A stretch of 64,000 bases of DNA from Ginglymostoma cirratum (taxonomy: Eukaryota). Shown here in pieces: positions 5,625 to 59,389 of the stretch (its first letter is position 1; each line of letters begins with the position of its first letter). A model generated the notes under the pieces. The model searched no databases. It was given only the letters and a program-made list of their open reading frames with translations, and was not told the DNA's origin. Location of the stretch: the NCBI GenBank assembly GCA_024137785.1, contig JAHRHZ010000099.1, forward strand, positions 4,156,384 through 4,220,383, in the 5' to 3' direction. Both the position numbers and the translations under genes were made by a program.

Positions 5625-5782
5625 GGTTAACACAGAGTGGAGCTGGAGGAACACAACAGAGAAAGGGTCCTGACCCGAAACATCAGCTTTCCTGCTCCTC
5701 TGATGCTGCCTGGCCTGCTGCGTTCCTCCAGCTCCACACTGTGTTATCTCAGACTCCAGCATCGGTAGTCCTTACTATCTCT
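5625..5782. mobile_element. PLE-terminus-derived hairpin element with partial hammerhead (stem II + GAAAC)
   Basis: Arms acacagagtggagctggaggaac / gttcctccagctccacactgtgt; central gggtcctgacccgaaacatc. Confidence 0.8.
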
Positions 5783-6119
5783 GACTCAGCTGGGTATTCT
5801 TTAAGTTGTACTTCTATGTGATGAAACTTTGGTCATAGTTCAATCTCAATGAGTACATGTTTTCAAACCTGGGATATTCGCAATGAATTGTTCCTATGAT
5901 GGTGTTCAGCCCTATATTTTATTGTCTGGGTTTACTGCTTTCATACTTCTAGCCTCACTTAAGGATATCACCAAGCAATTATTCATTACAGTTCTAATAC
6001 TGAACAATTTTTCTGTCACTTTTACATGGGATTCTTGTCAGATGCTTTATATTGCACCTTTGTCACATTTCTCATAAATGTCACCAAGCATTGCAAAAAC
6101 AGTGAATTATTTTCAAGTG

Positions 6120-6560
6120 TGGTGACACAGAAAGCTAGCGCACAGGTGCAGCAGGTAATCAGAAAGGCTAATGGAATGTTGGTCCTTATTTCAAGGGTTG
6201 GAATATAAGAGTAAGGAAGTCTTACTGCAACTGTACAAGGTGTTGGTGAGACCACATCTGGAGTACTGTGAGCAGTTTTGGTCCCAGTTTTTGGAGGCAG
6301 TTCATAGAAGGTTTGCTAGAGCAATTCCTGGTATGGAGTGATTGTGTTATGAGCAAGGGCTAAACAGGTTGGGATTCGATTCATTGGAGTTTAGAAGAAT
6401 GAGAGGTGATCTTATGGAAACACACAGAATTCTTAAGGAACTTGACGAGGTAAATGCTGGCAGGCTGTTACCCCTCATGGAAAAATCTAGGACGAGATGG
6501 CACATTTTCCGAATAAAGAGGCGCCAATTTTATTCTGTGTGAAATGAGGATGAGTTTCTC
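6120..6560 (+). mobile_element. CR1 LINE 3' fragment
   Basis: VQQVIRKANGML, LVRPHLEYC, SLEFRRMRGDL motifs. Confidence 0.85.
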
Positions 6561-9464: not shown

Positions 9465-11825
9465 GTGAGGAATTTAAGTGTTCAAGAAAAGTTTTATTAT
9501 CAAAAATACTAGAGAAGGAGCAAAACTTGACCTTCTGTTGAGAAATAACATAGGGCAGATGACTGAAGTGTTAGTGGGGAAGCACTTTGGGACCACTGAT
9601 CATCATTCAAATAGTTTTAAAATAGTTATAGAAAAGGATAGGCCTTGGATAAATGTTAAAGTTCATAATTGGAGTAAAGCAAACTTTGATGATATGAGAA
9701 AGAACTTTCATCCGTTGATTTGAGTAGACTATATGCAAGTAAAGGGACGACTGGCAAGTGGGAGGCTTTCAAAAGTGAGACAACAAGAGTTCAGAGGCAT
9801 CATGTTCCTGTTAGAGTAAAGGGTAAGTCTGGTAAGAGTAGGGAACAATGGATGAATAAAGATATTGAGGTTCTGACCAAGAATAAGGAGTCATATGTTA
9901 GGTGTAGACAATAGGGATCAAGTGAATCTCCTGAAGGTTATGAGCGATATAGAAACATTCTTTGAGGGAAATCAGGCGGCAAAAATGGGATACGAGATAG
10001 CTTTGGCAGAAAAGGTTAAGGATAATCCAAAGAGATTCTACAAGTACATTAAAAGCAAAAGAGCAGCCAGGGAGAAAATAGGGCCCCATAAAGATTAACG
10101 AGGTCATCTATGCGTGAAACCACAGGAGATGGGAGAGATACTAAATGAATACTTCGTGTCAGCTAGGGAACTTGGGGGAAATAAATATTGATGTCTTAGA
10201 AACAGTCCACATTACAGAAGAGCAAGTGCTGGAGGCCTTAAAAAACATAAAGTTGGATATATCTCTGGGAACTGATCATGTGTATCCTAGGACGAAGTGG
10301 GAAGTTAGGGAAGAAATTATAGGGCCCCTCACAGAGATCTTTCTATCATCTACAGCCACTAGTGAAGTACAGCCACTAGTGAAGTGCCAGAGGACTGGTT
10401 GGTGACTAATGTTAAGCTTTTATTTAAGAAAGGCTATAAAGAGAAGCATGGGACCTATAGCCCTGTGACTCTGACATCAATGATAGGTGAGTTGTTGGAG
10501 GGGATTCTGAGAGACAGGATTAACATGCATTTAGAGAAGCAAGGGCTGATTAGGGATAGTCAGCATAGATTTGCGCGTGGGAAATCGTATCTCACAAACC
10601 TGATTGAGTATTTTTGAGGACGTAACCAAAATGATTCAGGGCAGAGTGGTTGACGTTGTTTACATGGACTTTAATAAAGCCTTTGACAAAGTTCCACGTG
10701 GTAAACTGGTTAGTAAAGTTAGATCACGTGGGATTCAGGGAGAGATTGTTAATTGGATATGAAATTGGCTTGACGGTAGGAGACAAAGGGTGGTGGTGGG
10801 GTTTGTTTTTCAAACTGAAGCCCTGTGACCAGTGGCGTTCTGCGGGGATTGGTATTGGGTCCACATTTTTTTGTCATTTGTATAAATGATTTGGATGAAA
10901 ATTTAGGAGGTGTGGTTAGTAAATTTCCGGATGGCACCAAAATTGGTGATATAGTGGACAGGGAGGAAGGTTATACAAGATTACGAAGGGATCTTGATGA
11001 TTTGGGCCAGTGGGCTGAGGAGTGGCAAATGAAGTTTAATTTGATAAATATGAAGTATTGTATTTTGGTAAAACAAATCAGGGCAGGCCTTATACAGTTA
11101 ATGGTAGGGCCTTGCATAATGTTGTCGAACAGAGAGTCCTAGGGGTTCAGGTACATAGCTCTTTGAAAATTACATCACAAGTGGACCAGGTGGTTAAGGA
11201 GGCGTTTAGCACGCTTGCCTTCATGGCTCAGACCATTGAGTTTGAGTTGTGTTGTCATGTTGAGGTTGTAAAGGACTTTGGTGAGACCGTTTTTGAAGAA
11301 CTCTGTACAGTTCTGGTTGCCCTGCTATACGAAGGATAATATTAAATTGGAGAGTGTTCAGAAACGATTTACCAGGTTACTGGCAGAACTAGAGAGTTTG
11401 AGTTACAAGGAGAGGCTGAGACATTTTTCACTGAAACGTAGGAGATTGAGGGTGACCTTTGTAGAGGTTTATAAAACCATGTGGGGCATATATAAAGTGA
11501 ATAGCAAAGGTTTTTATTCCCTGGTGTGGATGAGCTCAAAACTAGAGGGCATATTTTTAAGGTGAGCAGAGAAAGATTTAAAGAGACCTGCGAGACAACT
11601 TTTTCTCACAGGGTTGTTCATATGTGGAGTGAACTGCCAGAGGAAGTGGTAGATGCAGGTACAGTTACAACATTTAAAAGATATTTGTGTAGGTACATGA
11701 ATAGGAAAGGTTTGGAGGGGTATGGGCCAAATGCAGGCAGGTGAGACTAGTTTAGTTTAGTTTTGGAAACTAATGGATGGATGAGTTGGACCAAAGGGTC
11801 TGTTGCCTTGCTGTATGACTCAATA
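9465..11825 (+). mobile_element. CR1 LINE, 5'-truncated, decayed ORF2
   Basis: LDLLLRN, YSPVTLTSMIG, SQHRFARGKSYLTNL, GLVLGP..FVICINDLD..KFPDGTK, WAEEWQMKFN, TRGHIFK; tail ctgtatgact. Confidence 0.92.
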
Positions 11826-12063
11826 TGGAATTGACAATGAGTTTGTCATGAATGGTAAAATTATGGAGAGTCTAATTTAGAATGAGACAGTGGAGGTGAA
11901 AGAGAATGCAATTAGTGATTTAAGGTATGATAGCCATAATTTTGTGGGACACAAATACAATGGGTTTGGTCTTTATCTGTTTTAACTGGAGCAAATTATG
12001 GCTCATCTAAGCTTTATTGTCAGACAAGTTGTCTTATGACACAAAGGTTGGCAGTGAGATTGT

Positions 12064-12175
12064 AGATATTTTCTAATCAACCTGTTCAGAAATTTTATTA
12101 CGTACCTCTGGAACTGGTTGGACTTGGACCTCCTGGCTCAGATGTAGGGACACTACCACTGTACCACAAGATCTC
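12064..12175 (-). mobile_element. Short (~115 bp) tRNA-derived SINE
   Basis: Reverse complement of the family copy at 24168-24284. Confidence 0.8.
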
Positions 12176-14364
12176 TGTGTAGAGACTATAAACTGAAAAT
12201 TCTGTATACTAACATGAGTTGACTTCATGAATGTCTCCTATAAGTGGACTGCCCATTTGCTTGATTTACACATCACCTGGATATTGAATGCTTTCTCGAG
12301 GACCAATCTGTTTTGACTATTGAGGCATTAATTATATCAAATGTCTGGATGAGAGTCAGCTAACAACTCAATTAAATGATACAGTATTCATTACATTCCA
12401 TTGTATCTTTGCTTACTTGCTGACGGTTCTGTGCACTGGAAGAACTTCTTTAGTCTGTGATAGATACAAGAAGCTAATCATCTAGTTCCAACCTAAATGC
12501 AGATCATTACTGCGAGACAGGCATTTGCAGCAAGATATAACTTGATAAGAAAAATGTACGCACTTATCTTTTAAAAGTTCTTAAAGATTTTATTTTAATA
12601 TCTAGAAACAACAGTTTGAATTTTCAGTTAGAATGAAGAATTGTTATTTTCTTCAGAATTATGTACCACTAATTACCTGAATCTCTTCCAGGCTTTACAT
12701 GCACAATTAGTGGCTTGACAGTTGCAATTGGATTAGCATTAGGAATATAATGCATCTCCTGCCACTCCACTGGGTCAGGATGTCAGTGCTGAATATGTCA
12801 TTGTATGTGGAACTGCAAGTTTGCACCCATTCCGCCAATAAACACGTGCATGTTGTTGCTGATATCATTCTGCGCCTGACGACTGCTGAGTCCCATTTAG
12901 TACCATCCTGGCTGTATGCTTGCCATCCTACGTCCCTGGCCTTCCTGCTCCCCGTTCCTCACTGCCTCCACCATAATGGGCACCCTACTTCCTTACAGAC
13001 AATAACAAATAGCAAGGGAAGAGTGTAACGAGAAACATAGTCAATGAAGCATTGGCAGCTGGATGACCAGGAAAATAGCAAACAAGGTGGCCAAGTTCGA
13101 GTGGGGCAGCAACCAAATTGCAATCCTGAGATTTTAATTGAATTGGTTTGAATTGATATGAAACAGTCACAAAATGGCATTTTGTTGGTGCACTGGCTAA
13201 AATATATTTTATTTGTTTAATGTTACGGGTGGTACTTTTCTTGAATGCAGAAGCTATCTGTAGCATTGCTAGCAGTGCACAGTCACAGTGACTGCTTGGT
13301 TGGTGGGATTGTCGTGGCAGCAAACACAGCATTAGAAATAACAATATTCAGGGCCCAATTAATAAACTAAGACCTCTAAGGAGGACCCAAAGTTTACTTC
13401 TGTCTGCAATTCCAGTCTATATTCCTAACCTTGGGACAAGATGCAGCCTGATGATAAAACGTCTTCATAATTTGCAAACACTTTGTAGTTTACATTTAAG
13501 TACATGTCTGGTTAGTACATTGTTTATAGTGACTGGGCATTTGTTCAACACGGGTGAAATCTATGGCAAATGCTGGACTGCTTGCCTATTGTTTTTACTA
13601 TTAATATTTTGTCTTAAAGGGCAGAGACATGCTTGAAAGTCATCTCTTAGTACAGTAAAGGATGTGTATTTGGAAATGACTTGAAATGTGGCATTTAAGC
13701 GATGCCTTCCATTTCCTTGCACTATAAGATAATATCTTCGAAATCATAGGTACTTAATGGTGTGTTTACAGAAATTGGTGGCTAATGTGTCTCTCTAGTC
13801 TTCTGAAATAGTTTGCAGTTCTTGGTACTTGCAAAATGGAAGAAATTGTAATCTGATAGTCTGCCAAAATGTTAATTTGCTGTCTTGAGAAATTTCATAA
13901 TTTGCAAATACCTTCAGCATGATGCCAGGTTCTATTAGGGCACCCACTATAACTATTGCAGTCTTCAACAATATTTCTGTACAGAAAGCCTCATCTGCCC
14001 CGTTCCAGCTAAAAGGAATATGAAAATCTAATCCTGATTAAATCATTTCAAATTGTCCTTGATAATATGGTCTTGTCCTTCCTGAAGTTCTATGTAATTC
14101 TGTTGAACTCATTTTATGAACCACTGGCTGGCTAATTAAGTTGATGAAAAGCTTGTAAGTATGGTGGCGGTAAATTTGATTTGATGTATCTAGACAGTAA
14201 AGATTTTCAAAATGGTTGACTAATGGAACACGTAATTGATACTACCCATCTTAAATAAAGATCCTATGATATAATATTTTTTGACTTGATGGCTGAAGTG
14301 TAGGAAAATTAACAGGTTTGGCATGAAACGTTTTATGAAATCAAATTTTACTTCATGGGCAAAG

Positions 14365-14596: not shown

Positions 14597-15700
14597 ATAA
14601 GAACTTAAGAACTAGGAGCAGGAGTAGGCCATCTGGCCCCTCAAGCCTGCCCCGCCATTTAATAAGATCATGGCTGATCTTTTTGAGACTCAGCTTCACT
14701 TACCCCCCCACTCACCATAACCCTAATTCCTTTACTGTTCAAAAATTTATCTAGCCTTGCCTTAAAAACATTCAGCGAGCTAGCTTCAATGGCTTCACTG
14801 GGCAAGGGAATTCCACAGATTCACAACCCTTTGGGTGAAGAAGTTCCTCCTGACCTCAGTCCTACATCTGCTTCCCTTTATTTCGAGGCGATGCCCCCTA
14901 GTCCGAGTTTCACCTGCTAGTGGAAACAACCTCCCTGCCTCCACCTTACCTATTCCCTTCATAATCTTATATGTTTCTATAAGATCTCCCCATATTCTTC
15001 TGAATTCCAATCAGTATAATCCCAGCCTACTCAGTCTTTCCTCATAATCCAACCCTCTCAACTCTGGAATCAACCGAGTGAGTCTCCTCTGCACACCCTC
15101 CAGTGCTAGTATATCCTGTGTCAAGTAATGAGACCAAAACTGCACACAGTACTCCAGGTGTGGCCTCACCAGGACCATATACAGCTCCAGCATAGCCTCC
15201 CTGTTTTTAAACTCCATCCCTCAAGCAATGACAGACAAAATTCTGTTTGCCTTTTTAATTACCTGCTGCACCTGTAATCCTACTTCTGGCGATTCATGCA
15301 CAAGGCTACCCAAGTCCCTCTGCACAGCAGCGTGCTGCAATTTTTTACCATTTAAAATATAGTGCATTTTGCTGTTATTCCTACCAAAATGGATGACCTC
15401 ACACTTATCAACATTGTACTCCATCTGCCAGACTTCTGCCCACTCACTTACACTATCTATATCCCTCTGCAGACTTTCAGTGTCTTCTGCACACTTTGCT
15501 CTACCACTCACCTTAGTGTCATCTGCAACTTGTGACACACCACACTTAGTCCCCAACTCCAAATCATCTATGTAAATTGTAAACAGTTGCGGCCCCAATA
15601 CTGATCCCTGAGGCACGCCACTGGCCACTGACCGCCAACCAGAAAAACACCCATTTACCCCTACTCTTTGTTTTCTACTGGTCAACCAATCCTCTATCCA
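14597..15700 (-). mobile_element. CR1 LINE 3' portion, relatively young
   Basis: ORFs 15221-15763, 15011-15217 and 14795-15010 contain SGVPQGSVLGPQLFTIYIDDL, ADDTK and LVRPHLEYCVQFWS; short tandem tail (taagaac). Confidence 0.95.
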
Positions 15701-16466
15701 TTGATGATTTGACTCACCACTGGAAGTAACAGCCATACTTGTTTTGAAGCCAAGTGAAAACACGTAGCTGCCTCTGAATGGAAGTCACACATGGAAATAA
15801 AATGGCAGAGGTCCATGCACTGACCCTTGCATTACTCCATTCAACATCTTTCATTTCTTCAATGTTCTCTATGCTACTCTGACATTACTTCACAAACTAG
15901 TGAACTCTGGTCTGCACACCTTTGTTCATTTTCCCTGTCTAATCTGGTTTTAAATTGAATACCATAGCCATCCTGGGTATTCATGATTTTTTTTAAGAAG
16001 TGTTTTATCTGGAATATGATGAAGGCTATTTGGAAGTTGAATTGTATCATAAGAATTTCCAAGATCTATCTATAAACTAGTTTCAAAAGAAGACCCAATT
16101 CCCTTCCCAATCCAACTACCCTTATTCTGATTATACAGTTAAAATTTTGCTGTGTTGTAGACGGTGCACTTCCAGTACATTGTTTAGTGGCTTCTTTTAC
16201 TATCTTTTACCATCTATTGGTGTAAGGCCATTTGTTTGTGATTGATTGTCTTGGTCAGATTTGTCCTTTCAAGGCAAGTGCTGTCTTCAGTACTGAGTTA
16301 TTGTTTTTGACTAGACAATGCACAAATTTCTGCCCATGTCTCCTACTCAGCTCCATGCTCAGTAAATGTATGCTGTGTGCCTGAAGGGAATTATTAGTGT
16401 TTAGTCTTCCATCAACTTAGCGAGCATTGCAATAACTGGAAGGCAACATTACCCTATATGTCATAG

Positions 16467-16676
16467 ATAGTAGGAACTGCCGATGCTGGAGAACCTGAGA
16501 TAACAAGGGGTGGAGCTGGAAGAACACAGCAGGACGAGCAGGAACGCTGATGTTTCGGGTCTGGGCCCTTCAGACCCTTTTTCTGAAGAAGGGTTCAGAC
16601 CCGAAACGTCAGCTTTCCTGCTCCTCTGATGCTGCTTGGCCTGCTGTGTTCATCCAGCTCTACGCCTTGTTATCCC
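16467..16676. mobile_element. PLE-terminus-derived hairpin element with intact minimal hammerhead core (16583-16610) and 11-bp TSD
   Basis: CTGAAGA-A-GGGT-TCAG-ACCC-GAAA-CGTC; TSD atatgtcatag at 16456-16466 and 16677-16687; long inverted arms. Confidence 0.85.
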
Positions 16677-16934
16677 ATATGTCATAGTTGGCTTCATGAC
16701 CTTTAACTTAAAAAGACATTGTTTTTCCACAAACCTCATGTAAATGTTGACACTAGGCATTCAGGGATTGGATTGTGGTTTAATTATTAGTTGCCTGCTG
16801 GTAATTATGATGGTTTAGTAGTTGAAAGCATAATATAATACACTGGCATCTCCCAGCCAGTCGCCAATACTTGTGTACTATGTTATCTTATTGATCTCTA
16901 GGTCTTAGTGCAAGAATACCAAGTATGGCGCTCA

Positions 16935-17719: not shown

Positions 17720-18128
17720 CAGCTACAATGTTCCAATGAAGCAACAATGTGAGCTCATGGAACAGCATCTTATTTTCTGCTCAGTACTTGAAAGCCTCGA
17801 GGTCTCAATATAAAATTTATTAATTCCAGAATCTGACTGCATTATGTCTGTTCTCCATTTTCTTACATCCACCATCTCTCCCCAACCCCACCACGCCCAA
17901 CTATGTCATGTTTGTGTCTTGTTTACTTGCACTTAGCAAAAAGAATTCTTTCCCTTTCACACTTTAATTTACATCCTTTTTACATCTCTTTTCTTCTGTT
18001 CTGATGAAGAATCACCATACTTGAAATAATAAATCTTTTCTCCCCACAGGTCCTGCTGACCTGTTGAGTTTCTCCAGAAATTTCTGTTTTTGTTTCAGGT
18101 ATCCTGCATCCACAGGTCTTTGTTTTAG
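17720..18128 (+). mobile_element. Penelope-like retroelement 3' relic: GIY-YIG C-terminus + pLTR with decayed hammerhead
   Basis: LQCSNEA..ELMEQHLIF...PRGLNIKF resembles the PLE endonuclease end (RKLEEQHLIFRLGTLQP.GLN); CTGATGA at 18001-18007 followed by GAAA. Confidence 0.75.
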
Positions 18129-18134
18129 TTTATA

Positions 18135-19200
18135 CAGGAGTAGGGAGGTTATGCTTAAGGTATGCAGGGCACTGGTGAGATAGCATCAGGAGTAGTGCGC
18201 ACAGTATTTGGTCACCCTATTAATAGAATGTTAAAGATGTTCTGAGTTTACTTCACTAATACCTGTTAGAGGGTGAGTTGTCTTACAAGAAAGGATTGGA
18301 CAGGCTAGGCTTGCATCTGCTGGAGTTTAGAAAAGCGTAGGCAACTTGATTGATAAATAAAATCCTAAATTGTCTTGACAGGATAGGTGTGAAGGATGTT
18401 TCTTATGGAAGGCGATGGAAGTGATGTCATCATATATTTTAAAACTGAGGTAAGTAAATTCCTAAACAGAAACAAAGTGGTAGAGAGACTGAGCAGATCT
18501 GGTGGCATGTGTACAGAGAAAAAGCAGTTAGTGTTTCGAGGTCAGTGAACTTTCTTCAGAACTGAAAGCAGCTAGAAATTTTTGTCTCAGGCCTGCAGCA
18601 GGGCCCCAGCAAAGCTCAACACAAGCTTGAGGAACAATACCTCAGCTTCTGCTGAGATCCATTACCCACTCCCGTACCACTAAGTCCTGTTCTATATGGA
18701 TTGCTCCCAGCACAGCCAATCCATTTTTAACTATTTACACTTTCCATCGGCACCCACTCAGCATTTATCTCCCTCCCCGTTTATCATCAGCAATCACTTT
18801 GTTTTTCCTCTCTGTGGGCACTGTCTCCATCTATTTGACTTACTACTTTCCCCCCACCTGCCATCATCAACATAAATACCACCATTTCCCAGTTGCTTTC
18901 AGCTCTAACCAAGAGTCTCTGGATTCGAAAAATTAGCTGCCTTTCTCTCCACTGATGTTGCCAGACCTGCTGATTCTCTCCAGCACTTTCTGTTTTTGTT
19001 CAGATCTTCAGCTTCCGCAGCTCTTTGTTTTATTTTATTGGATAGATTCTTGTTAGTTAGGGAAGTCCAGGGTTATTGGGGTTAGATTGGAATGTGGAAT
19101 TCAAAACATAAACTGATCTGCCTTGATCTCATGGAAAGGCAGAATAGGCTGTAGGGGACAAATAGTCTACTTATAGAATTGTAGAGTCATACAGCATGGA
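18135..19200 (+). mobile_element. Decayed CR1 3' fragment interrupted by the PLE at 18464-19040
   Basis: actggtgaga..gagtagtgcgcacagt, ctggagtttaga; resumes at gatagattcttgttag after the PLE. Confidence 0.65.
18464..19040 (+). mobile_element. 5'-truncated Penelope-like element with inverted 5' pLTR, GIY-YIG remnant and 3' pLTR
   Basis: 18464-18578 is the reverse complement of 18885-19000; internal FVSGLQQGPSKAQHKLEEQYLSF; hammerhead scaffolds in both pLTRs. Confidence 0.8.
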
Positions 19201-19289: not shown

Positions 19290-20420
19290 GCCTCTTGCAC
19301 CATGTAGTTGCACTGTTGTTGGCTTAATAATGGCTCATTTGCTGATAATATTATAAGGTTTGTACCATTGTCTATCTTGACCATTGACGTAAATATCAGC
19401 TGCCAAAGTGTAAGGTTGGCTCACCTCTTTTCCTCTAGGAATACTTTAGTTCTTTCTTCTGTTGTAGGTTGACTTACTGTATTAAGCTTTTGCATGGGTT
19501 GCTATTTGATTTCTTTGCTTTTCTGAAATTGTGTCCCACGTCTGCACATTACCTTCCATACTAGATTATTTCCAGAAGAGATGTTCACTTTTAGTTGCAG
19601 AGTACTATCTGTGCGTGAGAGATTTCTTTGTTCCACAGTGCTGACAAAGACTTTGTCTAGTGCTTGTCCTAATCACTGTACTGGTTTCTCACTTGTCTTT
19701 TGTGGTTTTATATCTTAAGAATTGAATAGTCTTTGTTGGTCTCCATTGCCAGGGTTGACCTTCTCTCCAATCTATATCGTTGCAGATTTCTGCTTTTCTC
19801 ATCTTTTGAATGGCTTGTTCTAGACTTGGATTTGTTTTAGACAGTAAAAAATCTGACAAAGATTTGTCAGCAAATCCTGTACCAATGTTGTCTCTTTTAA
19901 GTTTCAACTTCAAGTCACGATTATTGAATTTCTCCCCTAATCTGTAGAAATCATTAATGAAATAAACAATGGATTTCCTTGGATGGTGAACTCTTCTGTT
20001 AACTCTTGCTCTTTCAGGAATTTTATTAGTTCTAGGATTTAAATAGTTCTTGAAGGCTTTCGGTACCACTTCAGAAGTATCTGTTGCCTCTTTTACTGCT
20101 TGCGAGTTTTTTTTTCCAGTTGAGTATAGATATGTGCATACTTAATCAGCTTCTGATTTAGTATATAATTTGGAAGCTAGGACTCTTGTGGTGCAATATT
20201 AGTGTCCCACTTCCAGCCCAGAATGCCTGAGTTCAAGTCCCTCATGCTTAAGAAGTGTGTAATAAAATCTCTGAACAGGTTGACAAGAAAGTATCTATAA
20301 TTTGAAAGCTTTTCTGTATCTCAAAAAATTTTCCTAGATTTCCAATTCTGTATTACATTTGGCCCATCTCTGCAATTAAATCTTCTCAGCAATATTATTT
20401 CTGATCCCATGTTTTCCAAA
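19290..20420 (-). mobile_element. Gypsy-type LTR retrotransposon gag/protease relic
   Basis: ORF 19689-20069 (NPRTNKIPERARVNRR..FINDFYRL..RDNIGTGFADKSLS..LEQAIQ) follows the Gypsy gag pattern; downstream DIYVNG..KIDNGT protease-like motif. Confidence 0.7.
20179..20295 (+). mobile_element. Short tRNA-derived SINE with 15-bp TSD, inserted in the Gypsy relic
   Basis: TSD tataatttggaagct (20164-20178) / tataatttgaaagct (20296-20310); B box gagttcaagtcc. Confidence 0.85.
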
Positions 20421-21725: not shown

Positions 21726-23689
21726 CAATGGTCTTCCCTTTAAACCCAGAAATATTTCTCACGGCAAGGTTTATGGGTTAATCTGGTGTGGTTTTCAGCC
21801 ATGTGAGATGTTGAGAGAAAGAGAGAGAAAAACATCATTGAAATGCTTACTCTGTCTTTATCACGCAGAAGGTGGTAGATTGCTTGTGCTCAGATTGAAG
21901 GTCTAAGTTCATGTGGAGTTATGAGAGGCTGGAAGATTTGCCTGGGTTTGAGCTAGATAAAGAAATCTATCGTGTAACCCTTGTAGTGAGAGAATGTACT
22001 TTGAAGTTATCTGTTAGGAAAATATAAAGAATCAAACAACTGAAAACAAGGAGCAAATATGAATTGTTTGTAATTCTGTGGAGACTGATGTGATGAGTCA
22101 AAACGAATCATTCCTTTCTTTATTTTAAAGTATATTGCCTACAGAAGAAAAGCGCTTCATCAGATCTTTTTATGATCACGATATCATGAAAGGTTAAAAT
22201 GTTAAATATTGATGCATCATCCTTTTCAATTGTAAATGAGCAAATCTTTCCTTAAATTATCTGCCTTTATGGATACTGTAACATGCAGTATCAATTGCTT
22301 TTCCTCTACTCGTATGTTTTAGAATTGCTAGTTTGTATGAAACTTACTTTTCTATATTTGCATATCGAATAGGTTTGTTCTCAGTTTTAACTCTCCGTAA
22401 TCAATTGCAGAGCAGAGCTAATCTAACTTCCAGTGTGCTGCCTGACCTCCAATTTTGGCATTGTGACCCGGTTCAACTCCTGTCAACTCTTTTTTGTTTT
22501 TGGGAAGCAGGGTATATCATGATCATTGTTCATGGGCTGGAATGTTATTTCCAGGCGCAGCTGAAAATAACGAACTGCAGTGTTGTATCAGCTGCAGCTT
22601 CAAATTGTGTAGTCCTCTCATGTTTTACTTGCATTTTCAAGTACTGGTTACTATAGTAACAAACTTGTGCACTAGTAGCCATAGCAACGTCAAAGTCAAC
22701 ACTTGAACCTGCTAAATAAAAATTTGAAAATTTTACTTATACAATGCTGCCCAAAAATATTCAGCACTTTGTTGATGGAAATTTTCTTTTATATCTCAAA
22801 ATCGAAGAGAGGGTCCTATTGTTTTTTTTTTTTTGCAGTTTAATCTGGGAGTAGTTCTTAATTTTTTTTATGAATTTGTGGTCATAGCTATTGCTGGTGA
22901 GGCCAGCATTTATTGCTAGTCGCCAGTTGTCCAAGAGAAGGTGGTGTGGTGATCCACCTTGTAGAATTGCTGCTGTCTCTTGAATAAAAATACTCCCACC
23001 GTGCTATTAGGATTAGAGCTCGTGGATTTTGACTTAGCGATTATGAAGGAACAGCAATTACCCTTCCATGTCAGGAGAGTATGTGATTTAGAGGGAGACT
23101 TAAGTGGTGGCATTTACATTCATCTGCTGACCTTATCCCTAATGGATCAGATTGTTGGGACTTGAGGTTCTGTTGAAGGAACTTTGGCAAGTTGTTCAAA
23201 TAGTTCTTATACACGGTGTACACCGTAGCCATGGCACTTCAATGGCAGAGGGAGTGCGTGTTTATGGTGGTTATTAAGGTACCAGTGAGCAAGCTGCTTT
23301 GTGGATGGTGTCAAGCTTCTTGGGTTTAGTTGGAGGTGCACTTATCTAATCAAGTAGAGATTATTTCATCACATGCCTGACTTGTGCCTTGTGAATAATG
23401 GAAAGGCTTTAAGGAATCCAGAGATGAATAGTTTGCCGCAAAATACCTCTGCTCTGAGCTACTGTTGCACGCACAGTATTTGGGTGGCTGGTTAGTTTAG
23501 GTGTTTAGAGAATGGAAACACTCTGGGTGTTGTTGGTAATCCATTAAACATCAAGTAGTGGTTGGACTCCATGTTGAAGATGGTTATTGCTTGGTACATA
23601 AATAGCAAGTAACATTCATGTCACACATGGACGCAATACTGAATGATGTCCAATATTGCTGCATGGCAGCCTGGACTGCTTCATGAGAT

Positions 23690-23880
23690 AAGATCAGCAG
23701 GTATGGCAGCATCTGTGAGGAGAAATCAGAGTTAACGTTTAAGGTCCAGTGACCCTTCCTCAGAACCAGACCCAAAATGTTAACTCTGATTTCTCTTCAC
23801 AGGTGCTGCCAGACCTGTTGAGCTTGTCCAGCAGTCTCCATTTTTGTTTCTGATTTACAGCATCTGTGGGGTTTTTTTTC
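23690..23880. mobile_element. PLE-terminus-derived hairpin element; - strand hammerhead scaffold at 23727-23767
   Basis: Inverted arms cagcaggtatggcagcatctgtgaggagaaatcagagttaac / gttaactctgatttctcttcacaggtgctgccagacctgttg; - strand CTGAGGA-A-GGGTC-ACTG-GACCT-TAAA-CGTT. Confidence 0.8.
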
Positions 23881-24027
23881 CAGTTTTTTTTCGCTGCATA
23901 AAGCATTGGCAAAGAAATAACATTCTGGAGCCATCAACTCCACTTCTTCCTTATATAATGGTAACAAATTTCACTCATAAAGCAGCTCAGATATTTGAGA
24001 TTAGGACATTTATCCTAAGGAATTTGA

Positions 24028-24395
24028 TGACTCTTGTGGTGCAGTTGAAGTGTCCATACCTCTGGAACAGGACACCTTCATTCATATCCTACCAGCTCCA
24101 GAGGTATGTCATGATCCTGTCTGAACGTGTAGGTTAAAAATATGTACGATCAATAATGTTCATCTTGGGGATCTTGTGGTGCAGTAGTAATGTCCCTATC
24201 TCTGTACCAGGAGGCCCAGGTTCAAGTCCCGCCAGCTGCAGAGATGAGTGATAACATCTCTGAACAGATTGATTAGAAAATATCAATTGTGACACACTGT
24301 AGCAACATTTCTCCCTCTGAGCCTAGAGGCAGAGCTTCAAGTTCCATATGCTCTGAATGTGTTTCATAACATGTTCAAATAGATTGATTAAAATA
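24028..24395 (+). mobile_element. Cluster of three head-to-tail copies of the short tRNA-derived SINE
   Basis: Copies at ~24028-24145, 24168-24284 and 24292-24395 share tcttgtggtgcag...ttcaagt...ctgaacag.ttgatta.aaaata. Confidence 0.85.
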
Positions 24396-26992
24396 ACTTG
24401 GAACGAATTGGAGGTGCGCACCTTTGGAATTCCTTTGGCATTGTTCTTGGGCTGAGTTGGTTGACTTCCACAATCACAACCATTGCCCTTTGTGTGATAG
24501 TTCCATGTAATGGAGAGTATTGCATCAATTCCCATTGTCTTCTGCTTTTATTAGGGTTCCCTAATGTAACATTCAGTTAATTGCTGCCTTGATATCAAGG
24601 GTAATTATTTTCCCCTCCCTTCTGAAATTCAGCCTTCTTGTCCATGTTTGAATGAAGGCTGTATTGGGGTCTGGAGCTACATGGCTTGGATGGAAATCAA
24701 ATTGAGCTTTAATTGACCAGCTTGTTGCTAAGTATGTGTGGCTTGATGGCACTGTCAATAACAAGGTTTACTATTTTAATGATGTTTGGGTAGACAGTAT
24801 ATACCCAGGCACGTTTCCACATTCTTGACTAGGTTGCAATGTTGCTGCTGCACTGGAACAACTTGACTAAGGCTGTAGTTGGTTCTTGAGCACAAATCTT
24901 TAGTACACATTTGAGCTGGGGTCAGGGTGCAAAGTCTCTGCTATGTCTATTTCTTTAAAACCATTTCTTGGTAGTTTGTGGCATGAATCAAATTGTCTGA
25001 ACGCTAGGATATGTGATAGTCAGGACCTCGGGAGGAAGCCAAGGTTGATTATTCACTGCTGGCTGGAGATGGTGTCAAAGACTTTAACCTTGTCTTTAGC
25101 ATTAATGCGGTGGTTGCAGCTGTCATTGAGTAGGGAGCTGCTTTTGAGCTGACTCCTGGGTACAGTATAATTGTCTGTCACTATTTGTGACTAGATATGG
25201 CAGGCTGCCAATCTTTATCTATCTGTTGGTTGTGGGATTATTTCAAATCTGTCTATAGCATGCTTCTGTTGTCTAGCATGCATGTAGCCTGGTGTTGTAA
25301 CTTCACTACACTGGCACCTCATTTTTGGGTATTCCTGATGTAGCTTCTGGCATGCTTTCCTATAGTCCTCATGGAACCAGGATTGGTCCTCTAGCTTGAT
25401 TGTAATGGTAGAGTGAGGGATATGCCGTGCCAGGAGATTATAGACTGTGGTTGAGAAGCACACAGAGAATTGGTTGTCTACAGCCAAAATTCAGCTTGTC
25501 TCACCCCCTGCCGTTTTCCAATAATCCGGCAATTTTTAAAATGTCTTCAAATGTTTATTCAATTCCCCTTCAAACACCATAACTGAATCTGCTTCTACCA
25601 CCCTGCTAGTCAGTGTATACAAAAGTGTTCTCATGTCTCCTTTAATAACCCTAAACCAATGTCATGTGGCAAGAGTGGATCAATTTGAGCCTTTGGGCCT
25701 CCTCTGCCATTCAATAAGATCATGGCTGATCTGATTTTAACCTCACATTTGAAGTGCTGAATTGTCTTGTTCTCCCATAGGTGTATTCCTGCTGCAACTT
25801 TCCATCTCTTTCCCAGGCCCATTCCCAATAATGGCTCTATCTGCCAGTGGTACTTTAATTCGATATCTCTCAACTTGCTTTCTTACATTTCTATTCTTGG
25901 ACTAGGCTTTGTCTCCTATGCCCCCTCTCACTTAACTGTTATTATTTTTACACAATTTACAATCATATTCCAAATGTTTAAGCTTCTCTAACTGATACTG
26001 TCTATCATCTATCTGAAAACCTGTCATGGCGCTATTACAGTTAAACCTGGAACTACTTTCAACAAACAATCTGAGAAGACTCTATTGCAACTTTCACTTC
26101 TCCCCATCAAATTCCACACTTCTTCTGTCTCTACATGCTTCTGATTGCAGATGGTACATAATGCACATAATCAAAATTTACTAATTACAATAATAGTGAA
26201 ATTAAGGAAGTGGAGAGAACATGAAATAATACTTGTTACTCTGTTACTAAATGCAGTGCACTAAGTGACTCCATGAGCCCGTAGAATGAATGTAATGTTA
26301 GATTTCTTAAAATAAGTGTGTTTCATCTGAGTAAGCTGTCTATCCTGATATGAAAATATGAGCAGTGCTCTTTTCGATTAGATTCACGTTCAACAGGGGG
26401 AAACTAGGGACCACAAAACAACCAATACAGACATTTGTTATTTGCACATAGAAGTTAGCCTCCAAGATGAAAATTATATACCTTCACAAAGTATGATTAC
26501 TAGGAAAGAATGGTTATTCTGTCTGGTTTGCCAGGTGTTTGGGATGCCATCATTATTTGCATAAAAGTGTTAACTGTAGCTTGATGAACTATTCAAATTC
26601 CTCGTAAGGATGTTTGTTTCATGTTATTACAAGAGTTAGTTACTCTTAAAACTAGTTAGTCTATAAACGTGACCATTTTAAAATCTATTTTGAGCTTCTC
26701 ATGAAAGTTCACATGCCTGAAATTAATTCTGTTTTAACCTTTTATACCTGCTCCCAAATTTGCTGATTTATTTTCATCATTATCAGTTTTATTACAGATT
26801 CTTAGCATTCATAGTAATTTGCTTTTGTGTTGAACTTCTGTTTTCACCTTTTACAAAGGGGTGAGGGTCTTTTTTTTAAATTTAATTCTGTACTTTTTAA
26901 CTAGTTATCAATATTTCTCAGTGATTTGAGGATGCTGTTCTCCTTTCTGCACTTCACTAGCCTTTGTGCTTTCTTTCTCCTACTTTCAACAG

Positions 26993-31659: not shown

Positions 31660-31800
31660 TAAAAACAAAGAATGCTGGAGAACCTAAGCGCGTCTGGCAG
31701 CATCTGTGGAGAAAGAAACAAGGAGAAAGTCCAATATGACTTTTTCAGATTCTAAGCTTTTATTTCAGATTTCTCGCATTGGCAGTATTTTGCCTTATTG
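31660..31800. mobile_element. Decayed PLE-terminus repeat
   Basis: aatgctggagaacc..gtctggcagcatctgtggagaaagaaac; same family as 475-640. Confidence 0.65.
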
Positions 31801-32460: not shown

Positions 32461-32673
32461 GAGAAAGGAAGAACTGCAGATGCTGCAGTCCGAGATAACA
32501 CAGTGTAGGGCTGGAGGAACACAGCATGCCAGGCAGCATCAAAGGAGCAGGAAAGTTGACATATTGGGTCAGGACTCCTTTTTCTGAAGAAGGGTCCCGA
32601 CCCAAAACGTCAACTTTCCTGCTCCTCTGATGCTGCCTGGCCTGCTATGTTCCTCCAGCTCCACATTGTTAGC
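32461..32673. mobile_element. PLE-terminus-derived hairpin element with 11-bp TSD; hammerhead core with G12>A
   Basis: TSD tcttgaactcc at 32450-32460 and 32674-32684; CTGAAGA-A-GGGTC-CC-GACCC-AAAA-CGTC at 32584-32611; ~90-nt inverted arms. Confidence 0.85.
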
Positions 32674-33007
32674 TCTTGAACTCCACCTTGTTGCTTACGT
32701 TCTTTCCCATGGACACATGTCAGTTTCCAAGTGAATTTTGAGGAATCTGAATCTTTCTTTCTTTTTCAATCCTTCTTTAGGTCTTTTTCCTTCCTATCTC
32801 TGTAAGTTCCTTCAGCAATATCACCACCACGTAGCTCTTCATGGTTCAGACATTGGCCCCTTGTGCATTTCCCTGATCCTTCACCTCACCAGGCACTTGT
32901 GCCTTCTGCTGTCTAGAGACTATGCTCCAGAATTCCCTCCTTAAATTCTGTACTAGAGAACAGTTGCATGATGTACAGCACTGGAAAATAAACACCACTC
33001 TTTTCTG

Positions 33008-34859: not shown

Positions 34860-36775
34860 GTAAATTAAGGATAAAAGAATGACTAGGGAAAAAATAGAGC
34901 CTATTGAGGACTTCATTGATTATTTGTGAATAGAAGCAAAGGACATGGATAGGGTTCTAAATGAATACTTTGTGTCATTGCTCATTACTGAGACGGATGA
35001 CGTGGATACAGAAATCAGGGAGAAGAGCTTTTATATACTTAAAGAAGTTAGCGTAGACAGAGGAGCTTCTGAATGGTCTCGTAGGCTTAAAAGTAGATGA
35101 GTATTCAGGGCCAGGTGAAATGTATTTCAGGTTATTGAGTAAGGTAAGTCAGGACAGTAGCAAAAACTTTCAGTTCCTCTCTGGCCACAGAAGAGGTATC
35201 AGAGGATGGAGGATCTTCAGTGTGGTCCCGTTATTCAAGAAAGGAGGAAGGGATAAACCAGTAAGCTACAGGCCAGTTAGTCTAACCTCAATGCTAGAGG
35301 AACTATTGGAAGCAATTCTGAGGGACAGAATTAATCTGCGCTTGGAGAGGCAGGGATTAATCAAGAACAGTCAGCATGGTTTTGTTAAGGGGAGGCCATA
35401 TCTGACCAACTGGTTGAATTTTTCAGAGGTGACCAGTCTGCAAACAAGGGAATACGTTCGATGCAGTCTACTTGGACTTAGGCAAGGCTTTTGATAAGGC
35501 CTCGTGTGGGAGACTGTTAGCAAAGATAAGGGTCCATGGACCCATGGAAATTTCACAAATTGGATCCAGAATTAGCTAAGTGGCAAGAAGCAGAGGGTGA
35601 TGGTCGAGGGGTGTTTTTGTGATTGGAAGCCTGTGTCCAGAGGGGTTCTGCAGTGTTGGAGCCCTTGCTGTTTGTAGTTTTTATAAACGATTTAGACTTG
35701 AAGGTCGGAGGACTGATCAGTAAGTTCCTGGATGATACAAAAAAATTGGTGGAGTGGTAAATAGTGAGGAGGATCGCCTTAGATTATAGAAGGATATAAA
35801 AAGGGTGATTAGATGAGCTGACGAGTGGCAAATTAAATTCAATCCAATAAACATGAGGTGATGCACTTGGGCAGTACAAACAAAGCAAGGGAATACATGA
35901 TGAACAGTAGGATCCTGGGAAGCACCAAGTATCAGGGGGACCTTGAAATGCCTGACCATGATCCCTCAAGGTAGTGGGATAGGGAGATAAAGTAGTAAAG
36001 AAGGCATTTGGAATACTTGCCTTTTATTAGCCGAGGCATAGAATTTAAGAGCAGGAGGGGGTTGCTTGAACTATATGAAACATTGGTTAGGCCACAGCTG
36101 AAGTACTATGTGTAGTTCTGGGATTCACATTGCGGAAGGGATGCGATTTCACTAAAGAGGGTGCAGCGGAAATTTACCAGGACATTGCTTGGGACTGGAG
36201 AGTTTTAGTTATGAAGAGATATTTGGACTGATTGGGGTTGACTTCCTTGGAGAAGAGCGGTCTAAAAGGAAACATGATTGAGATATATAAATTGAGGGGC
36301 ATAGACAGAGTGGACAGGAAGGAACTTTTCCTCCATTGACTGATCAATGACCTCAGGGCATAGGTATAAAGGAAAGGGCTGTGTGGTTCAGAGGGGATGT
36401 GAGGAAGTTTTTTTTCACTTAGTGGTGGCAGTCTGAAACTCTGTGCTTTCAGTGGTGGTACAGATAGAAACCCTCAACATTTAACGATTTAGATGTTCAC
36501 TTGTGACACCAAAGCATACAAGGCTATGCTGGCAAATGGGTTTATCATAGTTGGATGGTTGTTTTTGACTGGTGCAGTCCCTGCACTGTAGACCTCTACA
36601 TTGGCAAAGATCTGTAGCTTGGGTTGTGGCTGAGGTTGTTGACTTGCTCGCTGAGCTGGCTTGTTCTCATTCAGACATTTCATCACCGAGCATGGTGAAG
36701 AAACATCTGAGCGAGAACAAGCCAGCTCGGTGAGCAAGTCAACAACCTGTAGACGTCTATGGCTATGATTCTGTT
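34860..36775 (+). mobile_element. CR1 LINE, 5'-truncated, decayed
   Basis: VVPLFKKGGRDKPVSYRPVSLTSM..SQHGFVKGRPYLTN; DDTK; LVRPQL.Y; tail ctatgattc. Confidence 0.92.
36599..36746. mobile_element. Third-family PLE-terminus hairpin element with 13-bp TSD, inserted in the CR1 tail
   Basis: Arms aggttgttgacttgctcgctgagctggcttgttctc / gagaacaagccagctcggtgagcaagtcaacaacct; centre tcacc-gagcat-ggtga-agaaacatc; TSD ctgtagacctcta (36586-36598) / ctgtagacgtcta (36747-36759). Confidence 0.8.
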
Positions 36776-42499: not shown

Positions 42500-43040
42500 A
42501 CAACGTATGTATATATATATATAGGACGTTTAATCTAATTAGAAAGCTTTAAAATGCTTCACCAAAAAAACTGCAGATGCTAGAAATCTGAAATAAAACC
42601 AAGTTCTGAAGAAACTTAGCAGATCTAGCAGCTTCTGTGGAGAATGAAACAGAGATGACATTTCAAGTCTGATATGATTCCTCTTCAGCACTCTGTAAAG
42701 CAAAATTTGAATCCAAGTCCCATGAGATATTTGGGCACAGTTTTAAAAAAACAAGTGTGCTCGAAGAGATAATTTTAAGGAGTGTGTTAAAGGAGAAACA
42801 GATACAAAGGCAGAGAATTTTACAGAGGGATTTTCAGACTTTGGGGCCTTAGCAACTTGAGACATATACATCAATAGTAGAGCAGTTAAAATTGGGAATA
42901 CTTGAGGGGCCTGGATTAGAGGAGCATAGGTATGAGCTGTGGAATTGGAGGAGTTTAGAGAGGGAGGGGTTAGACCATACCAGAATTTGAAAACTGGGAT
43001 AAGAATTTTTAAATTGTCGCAATGCTTAACTGAGAGCCAA
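42500..43040 (-). mobile_element. L2-type LINE 3' end containing a nested PLE terminus (42565-42691) with - strand hammerhead scaffold
   Basis: L2-like tail (ttttaaggagtgtgttaaaggag); nested - strand CTGAAGA..GAAA-TGTC. Confidence 0.65.
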
Positions 43041-49927: not shown

Positions 49928-51846
49928 TGTCAATTCTGATCCAAGCCAGTCACCTGAAACAGAAACTGAAATATTTTTTTGGGTATTGTTTATTAACTAG
50001 CAGTTTTACAACTCCTTTTTTCTACCAGTCACACTAGTTTCTCTGTCAAATCTACCCAGTCAATTAATTAATCACTTTGACCCTAATCATCTGCTTAACC
50101 ACTTGCAGCATTAATAGATTTTCCATATTTCTCTTCAAATAAAAACTTAGGGCTCTTATGGTGCAGTGGCAGTGTCCCTACCCCTGGATCTGGAGGCCCA
50201 GGTTCATGTCTCACCTGCTCCAGAGGTGTGCAATAATATGTGTCAACAAGTTGATTAGAAAAAAAAGGTCAGATAAACACTTGGGGCCCTCTTGTGGTAC
50301 AGTGGTAATGTCCATACCACCTGGTCCAGGATGCCTGGATTCAAGTCCCAACTGCTCCAGAGGTGTGTAATAACATTTCTCATTAGATTAATTAGAAAAA
50401 AAGTCACATAAAAGCTTTGAATGCAATGTGTTACATGTTTAGTGTACTCATCATCCCTTAGTCCCACGTCTGTTAGTAAGATTTTTAACCTGTGAGCAGA
50501 TGGGGAAACTGCTGATGTAGTTTGAAAATAATTAGACTTTTATCCTTTCAAATCCTATTTCTGGCTAGTAATAACACCTGCCTAATGTTTTAATTAGGGA
50601 AGTTAGGTCTTGTTAATGGATTGTATAAACTGTAAATCCACTGACAAGAACAATAATGTAGTTGTATTCCGTGTCCAGTTTCATTTGAATGTTTTTCATG
50701 ATTGAGCTAAAGCTTCTTGTAACTAGAATAATTCCGTCTGCTTGATCAGTACCACCACCTTCTCCTTCTAAATCTTTTGCATGATGCCTAATTTTAAGCA
50801 AATTATTACATGCTCCCTTTCAGACAATTTATTATCTAATGGTATTTTAAATCCGATCTAAAATCCCTGTTGATCATACCCTAGGCATTTTTGAGTTCAT
50901 TCTTCTGGTTTAATTCCCAACTCCTGTTGTCTATTATTATTGCCAAAGGAATCTCTATCCTCACTCTTTGTATTGACCCTTTTCGCCTATATCTGGTTGA
51001 TCTCATTACCATTACCATTGAAACCTCCACTCTTTGAGTTATTGCCAAATTTGATCCACGAAGGCTGCTAGGAGTGAATGATTCATCGGGAAGTCTTTTT
51101 TAAGCCTTCTGAAATTTGTTCCAGGAATATTTATTTTTGAAAATACAACTCTTGTTAATTTTAGGAATTTATCCACACAAGACCTTGGAATAGCCCAACA
51201 ATTTAAAGCCAAGCCTTGAATTGGGCATCTTCAAGTAGAATTTTTGCAGTTCTGCATCTAGTCTGTTAAACTACGTTCTTCTGTAGAATATTCATCTACT
51301 TTCTAAATTTGCCAAAGTCTGACCATGCCTCATATATATTTAATGGGTCATCTTTCTTCTACATGTTGCGATTAGTTTTTATTCAATTTCCAAACATTTG
51401 TGTTGAATGGTGTCTGTAGCTGTGACTATACTTTCTAGTGGGAAGTGACAGTGCCAAGCCCTTACCTTCCCTTTTTTCTTGTTTAAGAAAGTAACCACTC
51501 ATTTTTCCATTGAATCATGAGATTCAATTTCACAAATTGTTAATGGAAGACACAACCTGACATTTTGCAGTTGGCTTTAGCCATTTTGCTCTAAAGTAAC
51601 TTCAATTCTTCAAACTCTTAGTTTCCAATCTTCACCTTTAGGCAACCATCCTTTGCTATCAATATCAATTGGGATCCAAGCCAGCAGTGAGACAGAAACC
51701 ACAGCATCTTTCTTTGTTAACTGTTAAGTCACGCAGCTCTTTCTAGCTATCCATCCCTCCTCCTCCTCCTCACTTAATATCTACCCAGTCAATAAAGTAA
51801 TCAATTAACCCCAATTATCTGTTTTAACTTAGTCACCATATTTACA
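49928..51846 (-). mobile_element. Internally deleted, decayed Ty1/Copia LTR element (GalEa-like)
   Basis: Direct repeats ~49928-50116 and ~51663-51846; PBS at 51644-51661 matches initiator tRNA-Met 16/18; - strand QWKNE..GLALSLP..KKDDPLNIYEAWSDFGKFRK..FNRL..FKLL, decayed zinc knuckle (RMN..N..GMINR.FR.D.KYH...NC), protease-like IVLVSGFT. Confidence 0.72.
50150..50400 (+). mobile_element. Two tandem copies of the short tRNA-derived SINE inside the Copia relic
   Basis: Copies at ~50150-50262 and 50283-50400 with A box tggtgcagtgg and B box gttca.gtc. Confidence 0.85.
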
Positions 51847-58172: not shown

Positions 58173-58304
58173 GATTTCTGATGAAGAGTCTAGGCCCGAA
58201 ACGTCAAGTTTTCCTGCTCCTATGATGCTGCTTGACCTGCTGTGTTCATCCAGCCCAATGCTTGTTATCTCGGATTCTCGAGCATCTGCAGTACCTATTA
58301 TCTC
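58173..58304 (+). mobile_element. Single PLE terminus with intact minimal hammerhead core, inserted in the Gypsy element
   Basis: CTGATGA-A-GAGTC-TA-GGCCC-GAAA-CGTC at 58178-58205, followed by the family body ttcctgctcctatgatgctgc. Confidence 0.85.
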
Positions 58305-59389
58305 TGATGGAAATGGCCCTGTTTGGTTAAGAGACATGGTTGACATGAGGTCAGGACCAGTGACGTACAAATTTTGGATCGGCGCAATAGTTCTGAATAA
58401 GCACATGGACCATATGAAAGCCACGAACTGGCAAACAGATAGGGAGAAAAATGTGCTCTGCCCCTTGGAACAGTTGGAAAGGATGCTGGAACCCGTGGGC
58501 TTACATTCTCCATCAAGCGTTGATAAAACTTTTGAATCAGAGATGGATGTAACGGATGTAACCGATGTAACTGCATCGATGCCTTTGCCAGCAGAGGAAG
58601 AGAGTGAATTTCTACCAAGGTGCTCATGGTGCAAGAGGTTCATTTCTGTGTATTACATGCTGCCCGTATCAGACACCAAGTCGGAGGAACGTGACCTGGT
58701 GCTAAAATATCCCAAAAGATTCTCCAAGGAAAAGGACCGGCCTATGTCCTCGGTCTTGGAGGGGGAGGATGCAGTGATTGTAATGGGAACAACCAGCTGG
58801 ACCTCATAGAATATGAGTTCCTTGATTGAGGCTGTTAACCTGGTCCAATCAGGCAGCCCTGACTGACAGATATAAACAGGAGTGCCAGAGGTTCTGACAA
58901 TCTGGATGCTGATTCTGATGAGGCTGTACCAGATTCGAGGACTTTCCATGTGTAAATAAAGGGTGATTTGGTGACAGTATACAAGCCTCTGTGGAGCTAT
59001 TTCACTCCTATTGTTTTTCGAGCTTGATGTCTTCTAGTAATTTGTTATTATATTTCAATTGTTGTGCCACATTTGCTAGGTGCCCAAAGAAAAGTTTTCT
59101 AGATATTTTGGGATCGTCATGCACAGAAGTCTACTGGATGGAGAATAAACTATTACTATGATATCTGAATCAACTCTGAAGAGACTACATGTGTTACCAC
59201 CAATATATAAACTCTGAGGCCAGCTATGTCACCTAACCTTTCAAGATCATTAATTCTCCCAGTTCATTTCTGAGGGTGTTTATTCTGTGCAGCCTTCTCA
59301 ATACAAGGGTATCGATCTGGTGAATTTGTGAAAATAAGTAGCTGTTGTCTTGTGGTCTTTGTTGGTTTACCCTCTTTTTAATTCCACAG

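Follow-up and report, generated by a model that had tools for sequence, protein, structure and literature searches.

Described PLE insertions and the element in the CIT intron

The insertion units of EN+ PLEs (Penelope/Poseidon and Neptune) are described, in the accessible text of two papers, as carrying an inverted 5'-truncated copy and a tail of 30-40 bp, and the formation of PLE inverted repeats and tails is there called unresolved (PMC8557442, PMC3846280). The element presented here shares with these units head-to-head pLTRs, a tail on one arm, a TSD, a hammerhead in the pLTR and a parent with RT plus GIY-YIG at the C-terminus. It differs in being minimal and without an ORF, in a family TSD mode of 14 bp versus 8-10 bp in the rotifer cases, and in a sharp 5' stop just before the hammerhead core, common to both arms, which is not among the features given in those texts. 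According to the accessible part of PMC11167929, the protein of the Anolis Poseidon element PAc cuts and extends both strands and starts reverse transcription at two sites bounding the tail, and a hammerhead lies some 70-100 nt upstream of these sites; the present family appears to share these features. PAc belongs to another clade, however, and its ORF starts at stem II, whereas in locus L338 of the present family an ATG lies ~165 nt downstream; a derivation of head-to-head insertions or of a transcript start is not contained in the accessible text on PAc. The minimal hammerheads of metazoan PLEs have in common with the one found here an extra nucleotide after A9, G10.1-C11.1 and a palindromic loopless helix III, and pairs of hammerheads on opposite strands, 100-700 bp apart, have already been noted for metazoan PLEs; cartilaginous fish are not named in the part of that paper available (PMC4209133). 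Unlike those hammerheads, with a helix I of 4-5 bp, the present ones have 2-3 bp, and helix II has 4 bp. The class as such is already known, since an inverted copy and a one-sided tail are published PLE features (PMC8557442, PMC3846280, as far as accessible). New, as far as the accessible text goes, are the sharp 5' stop, its concordance between paired arms, a G before A(-4), and a TATA-like box at the spacing expected for an initiator.

The element at 16467-16676 of the window (the whole 64-kb stretch of Ginglymostoma cirratum DNA that was analysed) is a head-to-head pair of PLE 3' ends (pLTRs) flanked by direct repeats (Table 1). The original prediction had described two head-to-head PLE termini forming a long hairpin, and this was borne out, as the element RNA folds to a long hairpin of -136.9 kcal/mol (z -13.8) and none of 200 shuffles was equally stable; such a hairpin is accordingly predicted in CIT pre-mRNA. 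The further description as a 210-bp self-complementary unit holds for the pairing and not for equality of the arms, the left arm having 30 extra outer nucleotides (the tail) and two deletions of 14 nt and 3 nt. The arms show 9 mismatches in 78 aligned positions (~10% divergence), and the hammerhead core of the left arm itself is broken. The motif ATATGTCATAG was found exactly on both sides of the element, as had been reported; the duplication is probably 13-14 bp long with one C/T difference, which fits the family mode, and the final AG of its left copy also matches the element end (microhomology). Exact 11-mer direct repeats at a spacing of 210±6 occur at four places in the window, two of which are this element and a sibling near 32461. 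The flanking repeat supports the earlier reading that the unit probably arose by one insertion, bounded by a TSD. The outer end of the tail would correspond to a distal RT initiation site, by comparison with the accessible descriptions in PMC11167929 and PMC8557442. The filler between the arms likely stems from RT slip-back at the template end, and similar fillers are present in several relatives. Because it contains no ORF and no upstream promoter-like box, the element was likely dead on arrival. The locus is ordinary: similar copies number in the tens of thousands, and nothing about this one points to a host function.

Table 1. Features of the element and its host intron (window positions)
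Feature	Position	Strand	Remarks
Host CIT (citron rho-interacting kinase) intron	5544-26986	+	~21 kb; 3' boundary approximate
Left TSD	16456-16466	.	11 bp without mismatch; with one mismatch allowed, probably 16453/16454-16466
PLE tail	16467-16496	-	~30-nt extension, on this arm only
Left arm	16497-16574	-	Antisense pLTR copy; ends 1 nt before core start
Junction filler CCCTT	16575-16579	.	Repeat of 16566-16570
Right arm	16580-16676	+	Sense pLTR copy; starts at -3 (hammerhead C3 = 0) and ends at the tail-less 3' site
Minimal type-I hammerhead core	16583-16610	+	Conserved boxes, extra A; predicted cut after 16610
Right TSD	16677-16687	.	Exact 11 bp; probably from 16674/16675

The parent element and the anatomy of the family

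A genome search for the element gave 4,939 candidates, 40 of which were scored. At all 15 loci obtained in a genome search for GIY-YIG, the arm was located downstream of the endonuclease in sense orientation, and longer copies were found to encode RT, a CxxxxCxxC linker and GIY-YIG. Two loci, L069 and L070, in which GIY-YIG scored above and RVT_1 below the cut-off, contain an inverted tailed arm to the left of the ORF and a tail-less end to its right, i.e., the layout of the hairpin. Two of 30 loci with an ORF 5' end pass from pLTR or tail into the ORF (partial tandem), L338 with a full pLTR. A CxxxxCxxC-type Zn-finger-like motif between RT and EN marks Neptune or Nematis in the accessible text of PMC8557442, and the family is probably Neptune and not Nematis, a placement made by linker motif and vertebrate host rather than by a tree. 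With its RT/GIY-YIG parent, Zn-finger-like linker, inverted 5'-truncated copy and tail at one end, the hairpin is an EN+ PLE insertion. Exact matches to the tail motif of a young subfamily numbered 25,508 in the genome, and those to the tail motif of the subfamily of this element 2,106. Blocks of exactly 400 N, probably assembly gaps, often lie within young hairpin centres, and short-read assemblies would under-resolve these PLE hairpins.

The anatomy of the family was studied in census blocks (675,593 readable of 1,154,000 bases) and in 120 loci anchored on the tail, with positions counted from hammerhead C3 = 0. The 3' ends cluster near +93 (proximal, tail-less) and near +127 (distal, tail end). 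From 75 listed head-to-head pairs 62 were accepted, 13 being dropped as separate insertions or as badly aligned, and exactly one arm was tailed (~34 nt) in 60 of the 62, with pair sets outside the census blocks selected for at least one tail; in the census blocks, which were not chosen for the element, all 12 pairs had one arm with and one arm without a tail. A credible TSD was detected at 59 of the 120 loci, with lengths of 10-24 bp and a mode of 14. Besides, 17 of 80 tail ends (L167-L256) run six bases further into the downstream sequence of the parent, so that there may be a third start site near +133.

TIR-transposon MITEs are likewise short, high-copy and non-coding with inverted repeats (general knowledge; PMC8969392, accessible text), and a fixed non-autonomous hairpin unit spreading as a whole, either as a palindromic SINE-like RNA or as a DNA-transposon MITE, would account for the nearly fixed outer ends and for some centres and a 14-17-nt arm deletion that recur among the best matches. 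These recurring features come, however, from loci selected for likeness to 16467-16676. Hairpin centres and junction linkers otherwise differ widely between copies, and these variable centres together with variable TSDs and unequal ends rule out a fixed MITE; arm lengths moreover grade up to ORF-bearing copies, and the parent encodes RT and GIY-YIG. We regard such a unit as largely refuted and its probability as minimal. A TIR DNA transposon in particular was rejected on the TSD of 10-24 bp and the tail at one end in 60 of 62 pairs. The original prediction had named fixed termini with a constant short TSD as the mark of a true MITE and had asked for the TSD-length distribution of the family; the family has nearly fixed outer ends and a TSD of variable length. 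The view in that prediction that the element is a PLE and only looks like a MITE is upheld by the arm lying 3' of the endonuclease, the variable TSDs and the one-sided tail.

In L1 twin priming, cDNA synthesis is primed from both target strands and its products are joined end to end, a trait shared with the route proposed below for PLEs; what is inverted in L1 is another segment, lying upstream, whose priming sites vary, and the element ends in poly(A). Unlike this, both PLE arms copy the same sequence, each from its own fixed 3' initiation site, and have no poly(A), so that an L1-type twin-priming inversion was excluded and the 5' inversion put forward earlier does not stand. A non-LTR retrozyme, described in the accessible text of 10.64898/2026.07.22.740005 as head-to-tail tandem monomers with hammerheads, was rejected as well, the present element being a single head-to-head unit.

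The 5' stop and a putative transcript start

The 5' ends were determined for 160 arms, after 58 of 218 arms adjoining N (including many young hairpin centres) had been left out. The arms halt abruptly 3-6 nt upstream of the core: 58 of the 160 ends fell at -6 to 0 (23 at -3), none at -26 to -7, and 36 beyond. Ribozyme cleavage was rejected as the cause of this stop, which lies ~30 nt upstream of the cut site; no end was found at +27/+28 and 16 of 160 at +29 to +34, without a clear pile-up. A splice acceptor at about -25 was likewise rejected as the boundary, with no ends at -26 to -7.

Pairs in which both arms reach the core edge were either both-stop (9) or both-pass (11), and none was mixed (Fisher p 6e-6; 2e-4 without five endonuclease-selected pairs). 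The element at 16467-16676, with the right arm at -3 and the left arm at -1, is a both-stop pair. One of the 13 dropped rows, L233, is a stop/pass candidate, and its TSD points to another partner. Among 136 stopped arms, a set in which some loci had been picked for their short arms and some elements are represented by both arms, 87 had an inverted partner and 49 had none, and not one adjoined a long inverted partner. Arm mismatch was 5.6% within elements compared to 10.6% after permutation, and the difference also held within each set, with a few discordant pairs; this similarity fits one template for both arms, but also a common age or later conversion between arms. Together, the concordant pairs and the likeness of the arms make the 5' stop look like a property of the template.

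Concordance also bears on the reading that both strands are primed but that arms end at -3 owing to a barrier or a recut and not to a transcript start, through stalling of RT at a structured or protein-bound hammerhead or before a C-rich tract, or through an endonuclease cut at ATT. Stops made independently on the two arms predict many mixed pairs, against 0 of 20 pairs and 0 of 136 stopped arms with a long partner. Such a barrier would suit the mode at -3 rather than -4, the upstream tract that would give G-rich cDNA, and an ATT at -4 to -2, ATT being preferred by the Anolis protein according to the accessible text of PMC11167929; ends do not pile up at further ATT motifs near -34 and -30, however, and the G excess at -5 described below is left unexplained. 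We consider a barrier unlikely, while giving it more weight than any other competing account.

Self-priming (snap-back) of the inverted arm, possibly on an antisense transcript, has been proposed in print for head-to-head rotifer PLE repeats (PMC3846280, accessible text), and the short fold-back fillers at junctions and the resemblance of the arms would agree with it. It gives no reason, however, why the second arm should have its outer end at the proximal site, which is fixed and directly abuts the TSD; the inner end of one arm varies independently of that of the other, linkers are non-palindromic, and the arms of 16467-16676 differ by two deletions. Snap-back is therefore judged improbable, more so than a barrier.

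Evidence on the template end itself came from the young subfamily, in which exact genome counts gave 7,796 arms starting at -3 and 2,772 starting at A(-4) without the C of the parent, while 17,909 exact matches reach at least -14. The base before A(-4), counted by hand in 100 listed matches, was G in 60, A in 31 and T in 9, and T preceded the -3 start in 81 of 100 listed arms. When 19 of the G cases were read in context by eye, eight looked untemplated, eight were explained by the partner arm or the TSD and three were ambiguous; about two A cases looked untemplated, versus the eight for G. A first small sample had lent no support to a cap-derived G, and support came from the larger set of listed matches and the reading in context. 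In other retroelements, an extra G is known to arise through copying of the cap. A passage on cap copying was searched for in the accessible text of PMC2881922 and none was found.

The parent reads CCA(-4)TTTC at this position. We take this to be initiator-like on the basis of the initiator consensus. Of 53 passing arms, which had been pre-filtered for a similar motif, 38 have a TATTTAT-like box beginning 31 nt before A(-4); the resemblance to a TATA/initiator arrangement was recognised post hoc. The box and the initiator, at canonical spacing, would constitute a promoter within the pLTR; in D. virilis Penelope a promoter within the pLTR has been described (PMC2377424, accessible text).

On balance we favour, as the probable though far from certain origin of the hairpin, a Neptune-type PLE pLTR pair for which both cut strands primed one pLTR and the cDNAs ran off the capped RNA end just before the hammerhead. 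The GIY-YIG endonuclease would make a staggered cut, ~14 bp apart. One 3' end would then start distally, at ~+127, and its counterpart proximally, at ~+93, a chemistry suggested by the 3' ends observed at both places. Copying is observed to halt between -3 and -6, counted from core C3, and this halt would be the 5' end of an RNA whose transcription begins at A(-4) or close to it, driven by the TATA-like/initiator promoter in the pLTR. The two cDNA ends would be joined with slip-back filler, and repair would yield the TSD. Counting against run-off, the commonest 5' end is -3 and not -4, and the T before -3 is not explained by simple run-off. For the family in general, that a dimeric RT-endonuclease primes both cut strands on one sense RNA, and that short copies arise by run-off at the end of a capped transcript opening with stem I, is a proposal to which we give an even chance.

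At L321, near 2035 on the + strand, an arm starting near -4 is joined to mid-ORF sequence via a short shared motif, and in block B151 (L151-L155) a hairpin centre contains a 37-nt piece of the ORF. At both places, the RT may have jumped to another template on reaching the 5' end of the RNA.

The hammerhead, its host gene and the meaning of the family pattern

The core had been predicted to be intact, which is correct for the conserved letters: it has the conserved core of the minimal type-I hammerhead with the extra nucleotide after A9, G10.1-C11.1 and the palindromic 15.2-16.2. The stems are less complete, stem II having 4 bp, stem III (ACGU) being palindromic and loopless, and stem I having 2 bp, compared to a helix I of ~4-5 bp in the minimal type. 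A 2-bp helix I has been described in a D. virilis case (PMC4209133, accessible text). The earlier statement that the 5' strand of stem I is missing is right in that stem I is short, but nothing was lost by this insertion, since ORF-bearing parents offer only ~3 bp; the short stem I is an inherited feature of the family. Under the transcript-start model, the 5' strand of stem I could be only about four nucleotides long. An Rfam scan of the window at gathering thresholds gave no hit.

The exon downstream of the element matches citron kinase and CIT exons run on the + strand through the window and its flanks, which places the element inside a sense-strand CIT intron and confirms the host gene named at the outset. 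Complementarity of the left arm to the core, likewise claimed, is reflected in predicted pairing of this arm with 16591-16613 at p >= 0.95. It had been suggested that the antisense arm would sequester, and thereby silence, the ribozyme and that hairpins may be tolerated in introns for this reason. The core is indeed predicted to be fully paired, forcing the hammerhead fold in the full hairpin costs 22.7 kcal/mol by prediction, and a related hammerhead, that of the Anolis PLE, cleaves with the help of protein, which it needed (PMC11167929, accessible text). With the left arm removed and the filler kept, however, stem II is predicted to form at p ~0.04, stem III is loopless and stem I has 2 bp, and in vitro, monomers of metazoan minimal hammerheads showed no cleavage, the Schistosoma one being weak as a dimer (PMC4209133, accessible text). 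The ribozyme is therefore likely inactive with or without the left arm.

Unpaired sense cores are furthermore present within introns of the same gene. At 58174-58305, a solo sense arm with a tail and without an antisense arm, whose first base is A(-4) preceded by G, has intact core letters and one stem II mismatch, and an earlier CIT intron contains a long copy in sense orientation in which a pair of stem III is broken. The head-to-head form is also common at places that were not chosen for genes. Sequestration of the core by the left arm is thus likely a by-product and not a condition for tolerance, two cases being few, and as the reason for intron tolerance it found no support; we think silencing very unlikely, though not quite as unlikely as a fixed hairpin unit.

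Other repeats were seen in the window. A sibling head-to-head copy of a related subfamily at 32461-32690 has its own direct repeat and a broken core (G12 changed), and at 5628-5784, ~85 nt past a CIT exon, there is a tailed sense arm that lacks the first core box and is accompanied by an inverted stub of 30 nt. Similar arms and hairpins with hammerhead-like remnants, belonging to an older second family that is probably another PLE family, are present at 472-650, 18000-18134, 18474-18560, 18927-19018, 23687-23888, 31661-31720 and 42606-42700. A palindrome of unrelated sequence with 55-bp arms at 36633-36748 is possibly the end of a third element family. The CIT introns also contain decayed LINE fragments, presumably CR1/L2-like, and a SINE-like dispersed repeat (6159-6542, 9478-11756, 14784-15784, 12034-12176, 20165-20326, 24031-24398 and 50135-50402).

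A search of the literature, covering the accessible running text of papers, found no description of this 5' stop or of two-strand priming for PLEs. The pattern of the family matters more than the locus, as it offers a specific model and a predicted transcription start. Curators are cautioned that such hairpins should not be filed as MITEs. If the proposal is true, head-to-head repeats and the one-sided tail would be explained without antisense self-priming, and promoter and ribozyme would lie at the very 5' end of the PLE mRNA.
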